Shown here: one piece after another, positions 40,025 to 54,168 of the stretch
Position numbering within the stretch: position 1 is the first letter of the stretch
Layout of the letters: each line of letters opens with the position of its first letter
Origin: a virus
IMG/VR virus record: IMGVR_UViG_3300028394_002801
Span: 32,001-96,000 of that record
Length of the DNA: 64,000 nucleotides
Direction: 5' to 3' (one strand)
Made by a program: the position numbers and the translations under genes
The notes under the pieces: model-generated
Database searches by the model: none
The model's input: the letters and a program-made list of their open reading frames with translations, nothing else
What the model was told of the DNA's origin: nothing

Positions 40025-41281
40025 TTAACCAATATTTAATTGACCTGTAATCCTATCACACCAACCTTTTGATTTTGAATAAGGCCAAACAACCCAATAC
40101 TTTGGTTGCTTTGTTGTTTGAAAATCCCTCCATATTTTGCAATATTTATCTGGGTCTCTCATCATAGTATTAATTTCATTTATATCAGCATCTTTCCTAT
40201 ATAAAGTTTCATCATTATCACCATGGAATGCCACCACCCAATATTCATAATCTGGTTCTGGAACTGAAACATATTGGATATCAATACAATGTCTAAATAT
40301 AATTGAAAAACTATTCTCCCATTCTTCCTCTGTCTTATACTCCTCCTTAACTGGGGGGTTTTTCTTATCTATTGTCCATTGTTGAACTGCACGTTTGGCA
40401 TAATGAATGCCAGCATATTTTTCATAATCTCTTAATGTTCTAACTGGGCCAAAACCATATAATCCATCATGCCCCTCTTGTTGAACACCATCCACACCAA
40501 ACAATCGCTTGTTTAAATAATGTGCCCTCTCATTCTTTTTAACCCAATCTCTATCATCATCCCATTGTTTAACCTTTCCCTTTCTTGTATATTCATGATA
40601 TATAATTGGAAAATGTGGATGGAATAAATCATATCCCCAAGTATATGCCCTAACTGCAATTGAAATTTCCTCACCATGAAAATAATATTCTGGATTATGT
40701 TGAACTTCATTTGCAAATTGTCCTAGGGTAAAGCAATAATGTGCTGAATAAAATCTTGCTGGAATTGGTTTATCTAAACTCCGCCAATCTGGAATTGTTT
40801 CAGGCATAAAGAATACATTTCCCTCTGGGGAAAACCTATCAAAAACCATCCTCCAAGGTTCTTGCACCCTCCCTGCTGGGTCATTTGTTGGTTCATAAGA
40901 ACAAGCATAGGAAGTCAATAAAGGTTTCTTATACCCATCTTTCTGCAAGCCCTTAATTATTTTTATTAATGTATCATCCCAATCTTGATTAAAACGCATA
41001 TGTGAATCAATTTGAAGGGTATATTGCTCATTATTATATAATTGCTGAATTAAATTTCTTGCCCAACAAGCCCCATTGGATTCATTATATGGTATATCTA
41101 ATATTTTAAATCTTTTATCTTTTCTCCATTTATCAAGATTATCAAAACCATCCTCATCAGCATATTGCCTTGCAATAGCAAAAACAAGGTTCTTTGGCTT
41201 CTTTGCCTTATCCAAAATGTCCTCAATGGTTTTAACTAATTCAGGATCGCGATAACTTGCAATCTGTACAAATATTTTCAT
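40025..41281 (-). CDS. GT60-family polypeptide/hydroxyproline O-HexNAc transferase (paralog A)
   Basis: IFVQIASYRDPEL, GACWAR, QIDSHMRF, FHGEEI, GYDLFHP, RTLRDYE. Confidence 0.85.
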   Translation of the reverse strand: MKIFVQIASYRDPELVKTIEDILDKAKKPKNLVFAIARQYADEDGFDNLDKWRKDKRFKILDIPYNESNGACWARNLIQQLYNNEQYTLQIDSHMRFNQDWDDTLIKIIKGLQKDGYKKPLLTSYACSYEPTNDPAGRVQEPWRMVFDRFSPEGNVFFMPETIPDWRSLDKPIPARFYSAHYCFTLGQFANEVQHNPEYYFHGEEISIAVRAYTWGYDLFHPHFPIIYHEYTRKGKVKQWDDDRDWVKKNERAHYLNKRLFGVDGVQQEGHDGLYGFGPVRTLRDYEKYAGIHYAKRAVQQWTIDKKNPPVKEEYKTEEEWENSFSIIFRHCIDIQYVSVPEPDYEYWVVAFHGDNDETLYRKDADINEINTMMRDPDKYCKIWRDFQTTKQPKYWVVWPYSKSKGWCDRITGQLNIG

Positions 41282-41327
41282 TGTCTTTTTTTTATGAAAA
41301 ATAAGATATTTAATTTAAATATAAAGG

Positions 41328-51754: not shown

Positions 51755-51756
51755 AA

Positions 51757-54168
51757 TTAAATTTTTATATTACCTTTTATATAAATATCATTTAATAGTT
51801 TATTTGTGTTTGGTAAATTCAATAATGATAAGAATAATACTCTATATGTTCCTGATGGTATTGCTGCACCTGATGTTACTGTGACATTCTGTGATGCAAT
51901 TGAATCTGGAATTCCTTGGTCTGAATAATCTGTTCCACAAGGTGTAGAACCTGCATTTATAAACATATTGGTCATTGTATTACCAACCCCATCAATAGGT
52001 ATCCATATTGAGTAAAAGTATTTTATATCTGTGTTTATTTGGCTTGCACCCACTCTAATTGTTTCAAATGTATATTGATTTTGTGGGCATCCAAATGAAT
52101 CTTCTGAATAACTACTTGTTTGCTTTATTGCCCCACTCAAGAATATTGGTGGATATTTATAATTCCCTATATTGCTTGTAAATGCTGGATAATGGGCATA
52201 TGCATTCATATTGTTTGAATAATTATCTTCATCTGGAACGCCATAGAATTGGTAGCCACCCCAAGTTGCAAGACTTTCATTTAACATATAATTCTCCAAA
52301 GTAACACCATCATCAAATGTTTGAGGTTCAGCAAATATATAAGCATAATATGCTCTTGCAGATGGGGTTGGGGTTATGTTTGGTGGTATTGGTTGGGCAT
52401 CAGGGTTGAATGGATCAATTAATGAATATCTTGTTTTTAATAGATTAAAATTATGTCTTATTTGCCCAGCATTTAAAGGTTCAATATACATCCTAAATGC
52501 ACTTAAATCACCCACCAAACTGCCACCAAATTCTTTTTCAAGAATAATATTTGTTGTTAATCCTAAATATGGTGTGTTATTTAATATATCTGTTGTTGAT
52601 AGTTCTGGGTCTTGTATTAACTCATTGCTTGTGCAAGATGATAATGTTAAAGAATCCTTTAACCCTTGTGTTCCCCCACCTATGGAAATATTGAAAGGAA
52701 CACCAATTTGCCTTTCTTTTAGAGTATTTAATGGTCTTGGGATAATTTCCTCAAAATTATCAATAATGAAGAATATTTTACCATTTATGTATATTCTTAA
52801 ATTTCCATTTCTATAATTTTTTGTATTAATCCATGATTGGTCAAAGTTAACCACTTCAATTGAAGTATTTGTTTCTCCGCTTGTTTTTGGTAGTATTAAT
52901 TCAACACTTCTATCAGTTGTTGTTGCGGTATATTGACTAGATATTAATAAACCTAACCCTCCAAGTTCGTTTAAATCACAATTTTCAATTAATCTATCTC
53001 TAACAAATACTGCATCAATCTGAACCCAATTTTCATTTTGAATATAAGTTGTATTTTTGAATTGGTCAAATATTCCTTTTGTTGAACACCATTGATTTAT
53101 TGTTGCTCCTGATGTTTCACAAGTTCCAGTTAGTGTATATGTTTTTACACAAACTATTGGATTTCCTGAATCACCGCTTAATTGGATTGATAGGGCATTT
53201 GAAACAGAATCATATAAGGGATTTGGTTCTGTGAATATGACATCTTTATCATAATTTGTCACCCCAGTTATGGGATAAACCTTATTGCAAGTTGATGCTG
53301 AATAGGTGGATGCTGAATAAGTTGGATTACAATTGCAAGTATCCAAACAAGTAAGTCCTGATGTTGGTCTTGTATAATCACTATATGATATTGGATGACC
53401 ATCAGCAAAATGATAAAACTTATTTTCAGCCCTTGCTCCAAGATAGAAGAATGTTCCTTTATTTTTTGGATATCTAACATTCAAACCATTTGTGTCACCT
53501 GTCCATCTATATTTAATTAAAAACTCTGCTGTCCAACCAAGTTCAACTCTTTCTGGGAATATTTCATAATTATATCCAAATATTTTATAAAATCCTTGGT
53601 AAAACCCACCATTCAATTCTGCATATCTTCCAATATTTTGTTGTGTTTTACCTGTTAAATTATATGTATAACTATTGTCATTATAAATCCTATTTGTTGA
53701 TGTGGTGATACCTGATATTGGATGTAACTTTAATCTTCTATCATACTTTAATCTATTATATTTATCTACTGAATTTGTGTATAATCCAGTATTAATTTGA
53801 ATGGTTTCACCTGAAAAATTTAAAGTTAATCCATTGTCAATTCCTGTTAGTCCAACATCACATATTGAAAATCTATTTTGATATGTATTTGCTGTTAAAT
53901 TATAATTTTCTGGATTATAATAATTTTTTGAAATAATAATATCATTACTAAAAACTCCACAATTTATACAAATTGATGTTTCTGAATTATTTAAATCAAA
54001 ATTGAATGGCATTCTATTGCCATCATCTTCAGCAATTAACTTGGATGAGAATACAGTTTCTGTATCATAATTCAACTCATCTGATGTCAAACTTATATCA
54101 ATAATCTCATTCACAGGTCTAAACCCAATCTTATTGAAATTATACTGACTAATATTTTGATAACTCAT
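51757..54168 (-). CDS. Virion structural protein with LamG-like core
   Basis: GWTAEF, LRIYING, ISIGGGT, GDLSAFRMYIEPLNAGQIRHNF. Confidence 0.6.
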   Translation of the reverse strand: MSYQNISQYNFNKIGFRPVNEIIDISLTSDELNYDTETVFSSKLIAEDDGNRMPFNFDLNNSETSICINCGVFSNDIIISKNYYNPENYNLTANTYQNRFSICDVGLTGIDNGLTLNFSGETIQINTGLYTNSVDKYNRLKYDRRLKLHPISGITTSTNRIYNDNSYTYNLTGKTQQNIGRYAELNGGFYQGFYKIFGYNYEIFPERVELGWTAEFLIKYRWTGDTNGLNVRYPKNKGTFFYLGARAENKFYHFADGHPISYSDYTRPTSGLTCLDTCNCNPTYSASTYSASTCNKVYPITGVTNYDKDVIFTEPNPLYDSVSNALSIQLSGDSGNPIVCVKTYTLTGTCETSGATINQWCSTKGIFDQFKNTTYIQNENWVQIDAVFVRDRLIENCDLNELGGLGLLISSQYTATTTDRSVELILPKTSGETNTSIEVVNFDQSWINTKNYRNGNLRIYINGKIFFIIDNFEEIIPRPLNTLKERQIGVPFNISIGGGTQGLKDSLTLSSCTSNELIQDPELSTTDILNNTPYLGLTTNIILEKEFGGSLVGDLSAFRMYIEPLNAGQIRHNFNLLKTRYSLIDPFNPDAQPIPPNITPTPSARAYYAYIFAEPQTFDDGVTLENYMLNESLATWGGYQFYGVPDEDNYSNNMNAYAHYPAFTSNIGNYKYPPIFLSGAIKQTSSYSEDSFGCPQNQYTFETIRVGASQINTDIKYFYSIWIPIDGVGNTMTNMFINAGSTPCGTDYSDQGIPDSIASQNVTVTSGAAIPSGTYRVLFLSLLNLPNTNKLLNDIYIKGNIKI

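Follow-up and report, generated by a model that had tools for sequence, protein, structure and literature searches.

Gene content of the locus

The 64,000-nucleotide stretch of DNA analyzed here (the window) comprises bases 32001-96000 of a 110-kb viral record in IMG/VR, IMGVR_UViG_3300028394_002801, which is estimated to be 36% complete. Its G+C content is about 30%, and its tail sheath (14190-17333) and baseplate hub (8914-9663) genes assign it to a myovirus; complete relatives of 309-326 kb, one of them with terminal repeats, place it in a lineage of freshwater jumbo phages. Our subject is a block of glycosyltransferase (GT) genes in the neighborhood of the family-B DNA polymerase gene (PolB; 33809-36487), in which two members of family GT60, GT60a and GT60b, bracket five further open reading frames (ORFs) and follow directly on the gene for a collagen-like fibre (Table 1). 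It is considered here as a candidate system by which the phage would O-glycosylate its own fibre proteins. The 9-kb GT block is found almost letter for letter in lake metagenomes from at least seven studies (2017-2024), a genotype that has evidently persisted; the lineage itself is highly abundant, its protein clusters at 90% identity numbering more than 7,500, and the GT60 family is very common in freshwater metagenomes.

Table 1. Positions of the genes and motifs discussed, numbered from the first letter of the window
Feature	Position	Strand	Description	Support
MetK	38150-39289
GT60a	40025..41281	(-)	PF11397/GT60 glycosyltransferase, motif QIDSH, last gene of GT block	Pfam 219 bits, E 1.6e-64; phrog_24687 3.9e-157
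Three-domain enzyme	41328..43697	(-)	Methyltransferase-like N-terminus, HtrL/YibB-type GT-A and GT2-like GT-A; conserved GT60 partner	HtrL_YibB 3.3e-12; weak GT2; N-terminus via phrog_21658 1e-6
Cassette ORF	43675..44523	(-)	Weakly GT2-like	Pfam GT2 E 0.06; NCBIfam HpsN E 0.0016
Cassette ORF	44574..45524	(-)	Possibly GT-B/GT90-like, lead only	Atlas feature search: Glyco_trans_1_2/GT90 clusters, score 0.96
Cassette ORF	45524..46459	(-)	Weak glycosyltransferase signal	NCBIfam TIGR04440 E 5e-4, below cut-off
Cassette ORF	46413..47117	(-)	DUF7796-like	Pfam DUF7796 2.9e-5, below cut-off; phrog_13607 1e-20, function-unknown family
GT60b	47120..48391	(-)	PF11397/GT60 glycosyltransferase, motif QLDAH, first gene after collagen-like fibre	Pfam 161 bits, E 6.9e-47
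Collagen-like fibre	48536..51754	(-)	N-terminal domain, 171 Gly-Thr/Ser-Ser/Thr triplets in two blocks, C1q-like C-terminal head
Promoter-like motif ATATTTATAT	51779..51788	(-)	25 nt upstream of collagen fibre start
ATATTTATAT copies before genes	6901-6910, 11304-11313, 14107-14116, 17353-17362, 24266-24275, 32253-32262, 36977-36986, 40000-40009, 51779-51788
Conserved fibre-locus protein	51757..54168	(-)	N-terminal ~600 aa conserved	Alignment mean identity 59%
Thr-Pro repeat protein	19781..23563	(-)	Candidate second substrate; conserved N-terminal domain, 670-residue repeat region, virion-structural C-terminus
GT-B (GT4)-like protein	56864..58084	(+)	68-93% conserved across relatives	Pfam Glycos_transf_1 7.8e-4, below cut-off
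Cytidylyltransferase-like protein	58790..59179	(+)		Pfam 3.3e-19
Two-domain glycosyltransferase	59807..61441	(+)	GT2_5 + GT4 N-terminal domain	Pfam 8.5e-34 and 2.8e-12
GT25-family glycosyltransferase	61465..62088	(+)		Pfam 8.1e-12
GT11-family glycosyltransferase	62092..62880	(+)	Alpha-1,2-fucosyltransferase type	Pfam 6.8e-24
Hexapeptide-repeat acyltransferase	63293..63826	(+)		Pfam 3e-8

The GT60 enzymes

An earlier reading of the window from its letters and ORFs (the sequence-only reading) had named two GT60-like genes with the motifs QIDSH and QLDAH. Both are real: their profile scores compare with a curated cut-off of 21 bits for PF11397, the match spans profile positions 2-351, and both motifs are present. 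The DxH residues are D92/H94 in GT60a and D97/H99 in GT60b. In an alignment of 47 homologues at 35-82% identity, D92 and H94 are each retained by 46 and H229 by every sequence (for GT60b, D97/H99 and the invariant His are likewise conserved there), their equivalence to the metal ligands of GT27 not being established residue by residue.

The AlphaFold (AF2) model of GT60a is confident (pLDDT, the predicted local distance difference test score, 95.9) and points the same way as the profile. Compared with the PDB, its ranks 1-29 are all GT27 polypeptide N-acetylgalactosaminyltransferases (ppGalNAc-Ts), at Z 19-22 over about 275 residues (256-312) and a root mean square deviation of 3.5; other GT-A enzymes rank below these, with Z at most 18 and shorter alignments. 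A sequence search of the PDB with GT60a gave no match. GT60a and GT60b are thus members of family GT60 with a GT27-like polypeptide-transferase catalytic domain, and the relationship between GT60 and GT27 that the sequence-only reading relied on is visible in the model itself. Pfam finds no ricin-type lectin domain, the feature that separates GT60 from GT27, in the GT60 enzymes; where GT27 enzymes carry it, residues ~325-414 of the GT60a model form a C-terminal domain of about 90 residues, rich in beta structure and modelled with confidence.

GT60 enzymes are polypeptide alpha-N-acetylglucosamine (GlcNAc) transferases related to GT27, and all characterised members do glycosylate protein hydroxyls, as the sequence-only reading had it (PMC8724618). 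Their activity is known on mucin-like Thr/Ser domains and on Skp1 hydroxyproline, and some of the protist mucin glycans that they begin are fucose-capped (PMC8724618). A literature search returned nothing relevant linking GT60 with phage, nor anything on PF11397. Among 50,697 cultured phage records, tblastn with GT60a matched four, all of them Xanthomonas or Stenotrophomonas jumbo phages and none a mycobacteriophage; the PF11397/GT60 family was likewise not found in 14 control bacterial genomes. Many of the distant GT60 homologues are proteins of 900-2,460 aa with two to four GT60-like stretches each.

The ORFs between the two GT60 genes

The GT60 pair had been described as bracketing five glycosyl-/methyltransferase-like genes. 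Five ORFs do lie there, but only the three-domain enzyme (hereafter the tandem GT-A enzyme) is firmly a glycosyltransferase. The model of its C-terminal 560 residues (pLDDT 82) contains two GT-A domains, and its best Foldseek matches are themselves tandem-GT-A enzymes: Mimivirus R699, LARGE1, LH3, COLGALT1, and K4CP. TM-scores for the whole tandem enzyme are low (~0.25) because the orientation of the domains differs; the C-terminal domain alone reaches Z 16.8. For the other four, relaxed Pfam and NCBIfam scans gave sub-threshold hints only. The possibly GT-B/GT90-like ORF has no Pfam match, its hint coming from a language-model search only, and the weakly GT2-like ORF has homologues in the equivalent position, the “cassette,” of related phages.

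Repeat proteins

The fibre gene is separated from GT60b by 144 nt and lies upstream of it on the same strand, and the more than one hundred Gly-Thr-Ser-type triplets first attributed to it were counted as 171 Gly-X-Y triplets in runs of 45, 66, 11, and 49. Ser or Thr occupies 300 of the 342 X and Y positions; there is one Pro, and no Lys. Pfam recognizes Collagen (PF01391, 5.5e-66) and C1q (6.7e-6, 26.8 bits against a cut-off of 23.7) in the protein, the C1q-like head also giving a weak C1q/cerebellin match in the PDB, in which the N-terminal 205 residues match nothing. Among PHROGs it matches tail-fibre phrog 5073 (2e-65) and phrog 1806, “collagen like minor tail,” both via the repeats. Independent metagenome contigs break inside the collagen repeats (49200-51100), and one carries in-frame variants of +9 nt and -18 nt, so that the exact number of triplets is assembly-dependent; within populations, repeat number probably varies.

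The conserved fibre-locus protein is encoded next to the collagen-like fibre, and in relatives has a variable C-terminus, usually with Thr-Pro repeats. Its profile gave only noise against the PDB (E 0.07 or worse) and no match among PHROGs; an Atlas search offers a ConA/LamG-like lead.

The third repeat protein is encoded at some distance, in the block just upstream of the tail sheath gene. Its repeat region is 49% Thr and 21% Pro, and its C-terminus matches phrog_8510, “virion structural protein” (1.2e-15). Judging from comparison of the sequences, the repeat region and C-terminal domain of the window's protein are additions to a conserved N-terminal module. In the closest relatives (L093/G004, 1417-2641; L092/G003) the orthologue is divided between two ORFs; in more distant ones it is reduced to a protein of ~350 aa without repeats.

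Conservation and exchange around GT60

Close relatives of GT60a are encoded by 308 viral contigs. In the main lineage (about 50 related contigs) the gene order runs from a divergent block of small conserved genes through the fibre-locus gene, 1-6 further ORFs, GT60, a cassette of 1-10 ORFs, the tandem GT-A enzyme, and a small ORF to PolB. The ORFs between the fibre-locus gene and GT60 mostly encode Thr-Pro repeats, with collagen-like ones in 18 of 53 loci. With GT60 as the anchor, 49 of the 53 loci with upstream sequence have Thr-Pro or Gly-X-Y repeat ORFs in the same-strand block ahead of it, and at 44 of the 53 a repeat ORF immediately precedes GT60, compared with 4 of 681 background downstream ORFs. 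When the fibre-locus gene served as the anchor, which removes the selection of loci by GT60, 55 of 79 reach a same-strand GT60, 50 of these through repeat ORFs. A further 23 contigs (within L146-L224) end before GT60, all but one of them after repeat ORFs have begun and often within these, and one contig has a strand switch. Short-read assembly systematically truncates the repeat-GT60 locus, which will therefore be under-reported.

The cassette between GT60 and the tandem GT-A enzyme draws on 50 protein families across 78 loci, including FkbM, CmcI, and TylF sugar methyltransferases, GT10, GT11, GT25, PLOD-type GT, GT7, and GT34, and is wholly different between phages whose PolB proteins are 91-96% identical. 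Larger exchanges are also indicated. GT60b has orthologues in a second phage lineage, and for the block from GT60b to the tandem enzyme the respective identities are 62-78% and 58-76% to that lineage, against 41% and 47% to the nearest relatives, which points to exchange of the whole block.

Promoter-like motif and RNA evidence

Ten exact copies of ATATTTATAT occur in the window, where 2.4 would be expected and none of 100 shuffles reached ten, and nine of them lie 15-30 nt before start codons in the orientation of the gene. The motif is common to the collagen fibre gene, the tail sheath gene, and seven others, among them structural genes and an S-adenosylmethionine (SAM)-lyase-like gene. This pattern is consistent with a candidate phage promoter under which the collagen fibre would be co-regulated with structural genes; since the SAM-lyase-like gene is among its carriers, the motif does not by itself establish “late” timing. 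The T4 late promoter TATAAATA showed no clear enrichment in the window (28 copies, 19 expected), and generic sigma-70 and terminator scans stayed at background level. Short, near-identical contigs from within six of the seven GT-block genes turned up in two metatranscriptome libraries, each from a different study. Over the collagen repeats, RNA-library depth was not accepted as a sign of expression, since the repeats draw contigs of other organisms.

The second cluster and other features of the window

The second glycosylation cluster listed by the sequence-only reading is largely as described: the cytidylyltransferase, the GT2_5 + GT4 protein, GT25, GT11, and the acyltransferase stand, while the “GT4” protein at 56864-58084 falls below the Pfam cut-off and the “cupin” (E 0.05) was not sustained. 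Beyond the window it continues with GT10, a DegT fragment, a GDP-mannose dehydratase (GMD), an HAD-nucleotidyltransferase fusion, and more GT1/GT2 genes. A PolB-type 3'-5' exonuclease and a dUTPase (58092-59795, plus strand) are interleaved with the GT genes and kept in relatives at 51-97% identity. A metK gene is indeed nearby, but it is close to the cluster only in the closest relatives, so that the dedicated supply of SAM suggested for it is unsupported.

Elsewhere, a large HNH/homing-endonuclease gene (12396-14090, minus strand; phrog_3339, 3.5e-116) lies between the tail sheath and endolysin-like genes. Three tandem paralogues of 167-168 aa without a family match (18252-19768, minus strand) separate the Thr-Pro repeat protein gene from the tail sheath region. 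In the 956-aa product of 24340-27210 (plus strand), the C-terminal half matches DNA helicase PHROGs, and the N-terminal half matches families that bear the label terminase large subunit or helicase loader.

A possible pathway for fibre glycosylation

We lean, by a modest degree, toward the reading that the phage O-glycosylates its own fibre proteins in the cytoplasm, with GT60 initiating glycans and the tandem GT-A enzyme and swappable cassette elongating them. Neither cluster encodes a protein with a membrane-like segment, and the enzymes look soluble. Late in infection, hydroxyl-rich fibre proteins would be made: the (Gly-Thr-Ser)n fibre with its C1q head, the fibre-locus protein, and the Thr-Pro repeat protein. 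The two soluble GT60 enzymes, with their retaining GT-A fold and DxH-plus-His metal site, would start glycans on Thr and Ser hydroxyls by adding an N-acetylhexosamine (HexNAc), by analogy alpha-GlcNAc from UDP-GlcNAc. The tandem enzyme, with its methyltransferase-like domain, and the transferases of the cassette would extend these, and the second cluster could contribute GT25, GT11, GT10, acyltransferase, and GMD functions. The outcome would be a strain-specific glycan coat on the fibres. For the mucin-type coat on virion proteins put forward by the sequence-only reading, the enzyme family, the synteny, the soluble enzymes, and a parallel in phage XacN1 (below) all speak in its favor, while the fibres as acceptors, the identity of the sugar, and the fucosylated, methylated, or acetylated caps are predictions that go further than this evidence.

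Which of the repeat proteins might be the acceptor is a separate matter. Thr-Pro repeats co-occur with GT60 far more widely than collagen repeats do, so that the collagen-like fibre is not established as the main target; judged by the comparative data, they are no less likely than the collagen repeats to be the acceptors. Hydroxylysine-type collagen glycosylation cannot apply to triplets that lack Lys and nearly lack Pro.

Several observations weigh against the pathway outlined above. Four of the five bracketed ORFs have a weak family assignment or none, glycosylation and enzyme activity in this phage lineage are predicted, as is the membership of the repeat proteins in the virion, and the contigs from RNA libraries may be carry-over DNA. 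Pro/Thr linkers are common in phage fibres without known glycosylation. The related loci are kin, so that the counts overstate their independence. Adjacency might arise because repeat and GT genes share a variable island beside PolB: the second lineage has its GT60 pair, cassette, and tandem GT-A enzyme surrounded by small unrelated ORFs, with the Thr-Pro repeat genes ~150 kb away. A 92%-complete genome of that lineage has 395 Thr-Pro-Thr coding-pattern matches at this distance from the GT block, and two further records, 55-75% complete, also have such matches, so that repeats and GT60 occur together in all three lineage-2 records at least 55% complete: co-occurrence within the genome holds, adjacency is not required, and the synteny is lineage-specific. 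The expectation of the sequence-only reading that GT60 would accompany Ser/Thr repeats across relatives, although borne out in about 50 of them, also has exceptions in both directions. The closest relatives, of the type of G004, retain two GT60 genes beside a fibre-locus gene that is truncated and free of repeats, and have no local repeats, their split Thr-Pro protein retaining ~35 repeat residues. Conversely, the 64-kb fragment L169 (G010) has a repeat-bearing fibre-locus gene followed by unrelated minus-strand ORFs and no GT60, and may be a rearranged variant or a chimeric assembly.

Alternative targets

One alternative, which we regard as unlikely, is that the GT blocks act on something other than phage proteins, such as host envelope glycans or a secreted or cell-bound polysaccharide, and that their proximity to fibre genes comes from sharing a recombination-prone island by PolB. 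The separation of GT block and repeat genes in the second lineage fits this, as does the interleaving of the second cluster with exonuclease and dUTPase rather than virion genes; the cassette content (GT25, GT11, GT10, HtrL/YibB, GMD, and acyltransferase) resembles lipopolysaccharide (LPS) or O-antigen loci, and peripheral LPS transferases likewise lack membrane segments. However, the lead enzymes are GT60/GT27-like, a group in which every characterised member uses polypeptide acceptors (PMC8724618), and the order in which GT60 directly follows repeat genes is kept while both flanks are swapped. Nor is there a lipid-carrier route in the phage genomes: undecaprenyl phosphate (Und-P) priming phosphoglycosyltransferases (PF02397/PF00953) and Wzx flippase (PF01943) were not found in the window's record (G000) or in three 90-100%-complete relatives, with controls positive, although host priming enzymes or flippase could serve the phage. 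The glycoproteins carried by XacN1 virions also argue for protein targets.

Another alternative, about as improbable, is that GT60 modifies proteins other than fibres, either the capsid or tail tube or one regulatory protein in the manner of Skp1, the Ser/Thr repeats being spacers. The founding member of GT60 modifies one hydroxyproline of one cytoplasmic protein (PMC8724618), the G004-type relatives manage with two GT60 genes and no local repeats, and the XacN1 glycoprotein bands have not been identified. In addition, the complete relatives G001 and G002 (L141-L145; ~72% GT60 identity) each encode three prolyl 4-hydroxylase (P4H)-type 2-oxoglutarate-Fe(II) oxygenases (PF13640), away from the GT locus. 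Such genes were not found in G003, G005, or the window's record, and are missing from the closest 90%-complete relative and lineage 2; a hydroxyproline route, P4H and then GT60, was rejected as a general mechanism for this reason. An elongation cassette as large and variable as this is more in keeping with bulk decoration than with a single regulatory site, and the presence of repeats with GT60 in each of the more complete lineage-2 records also favors fibres.

Sugar hypermodification of phage DNA against restriction, as in T-even phages and 5-hydroxymethylcytosine (5hmC)-glycan systems, is very improbable: the cluster is near PolB, dUTPase, and exonuclease, and phage GT-A enzymes can glycosylate DNA, but those that do resemble JGT/TarP with a DDD-type site (bioRxiv 10.1101/2023.12.21.572611), unlike the GT27-like DxH; no DNA hydroxymethylase was recognised in the near-complete relatives, no ThyA-family gene was found in the closest 90%-complete one, those of G001 and G002, the only ones seen, score as ordinary thymidylate synthase, a Tet/JBP search found no match (its positive control was also silent), and known DNA glycan pathways do not resemble a multi-enzyme cassette that combines fucosyl-type transferases with sugar O-methyltransferases.

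Comparison with known systems

Returning to fibre glycosylation, the nearest cultured parallels are XacN1/Xoo-sp13 and the Stenotrophomonas phages CM1/RAS14, which have the same GT60 at 42-47% identity to that of the window (43-47% for XacN1 and Xoo-sp13). The tandem GT-A enzyme has a counterpart in XacN1, ORF330 (38% identity), and the genes of Xoo-sp13 are arranged in the same way. In both XacN1 and Xoo-sp13 the GT genes are near PolB and convergent with an adjoining gene of more than 3,000 aa, which in XacN1 follows baseplate-wedge genes and encodes a protein with Pro-Thr linkers. At least two protein bands of XacN1 virions are Schiff-positive, and its authors suggested that phage transferases make them so (PMC5852040); these glycoproteins were neither identified nor tied to ORF334, the GT60 of that phage. 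The XacN1 type differs from the window in that a carbamoyltransferase replaces the variable cassette and no repeat gene lies directly upstream of GT60.

The protist GT60 enzymes (Dictyostelium Gnt1/GntB, Trypanosoma cruzi OGNT) share with those of the window PF11397, a GT27-like domain with DxH and a later His, and the absence of a ricin domain; in both cases there are Thr-rich mucin-like proteins, here candidate acceptors, and fucosyl-type transferases available for capping. In contrast to these, the window enzymes are phage-encoded, are predicted to act in the bacterial cytoplasm, and are known here from sequence and model; GT60a has its extra ~90-residue beta-rich C-terminal domain, and the pair is partnered with a tandem GT-A enzyme and swappable cassette.

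Virus-encoded glycosylation of virion proteins by soluble transferases, independent of the host secretory machinery, is a property of giant viruses as well (capsid glycans of chlorovirus PBCV-1; Mimivirus fibrils and collagen, R699/L230). The likeness extends to R699, LH3, and COLGALT1 among the best matches of the tandem GT-A enzyme, and to the PLOD-GT and GT25 domains in the cassettes of relatives. The host of the window's phage, unlike theirs, is a bacterium, and its collagen repeats offer no Lys.

Among phages, in mycobacteriophage virion O-glycosylation (Freeman et al., 2023, Cell Host Microbe 31:1216; cited in PMC12619734), phage-encoded glycosyltransferases are proposed or shown to decorate the phage's own virion proteins in the cytoplasm, with glycans on the C-termini of capsid and tail-tube subunits. 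The candidate substrates in the window are, by comparison, long collagen-like and Thr-Pro fibre repeats suggested by the genes. To our knowledge, phage virion glycosylation has been demonstrated only on the capsid and tail-tube tails of actinobacteriophages. In architecture, the collagen-like fibre resembles BclA of the Bacillus exosporium, with its N-terminal anchor, Gly-X-Thr-rich collagen-like region, and trimeric C1q-like head. The Thr residues of BclA carry HexNAc-linked oligosaccharides; its repeats are mostly Gly-Pro-Thr and other enzymes are involved.

Implications

Virus-encoded glycosylation of virions is already known; the version with GT60 and repeat fibres would be new. If the proposed pathway is correct, it adds mucin-type initiation by GT60 as a new chemistry for phage virion glycosylation, collagen-like and Thr-Pro fibres as a class of substrate, and a hypervariable cassette logic resembling that of O-antigen loci. 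A broader picture is also conceivable, although we hold it to be doubtful as a whole: abundant freshwater jumbo phages would cover their collagen-like and Thr-Pro fibres, within the bacterial cytoplasm, with a dense mucin-like layer of O-glycans that varies from strain to strain, using families of the eukaryotic secretory type (GT60, GT7, GT10, GT11, GT25, PLOD-GT); glycans on Thr and Ser would take the place of hydroxyproline in stabilizing a proline-free collagen helix; and phages would be a large, unrecognised reservoir of GT60/GT27-type enzymes.

XacN1 provides a cultured system in which the idea of fibre glycosylation could be tested directly, and GT60-type enzymes could serve as soluble tools for making mucin-type glycoproteins in the bacterial cytoplasm. 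For the phages themselves, a glycan coat could affect host recognition, resistance to proteases and grazing, the stickiness of particles, and carbon export.

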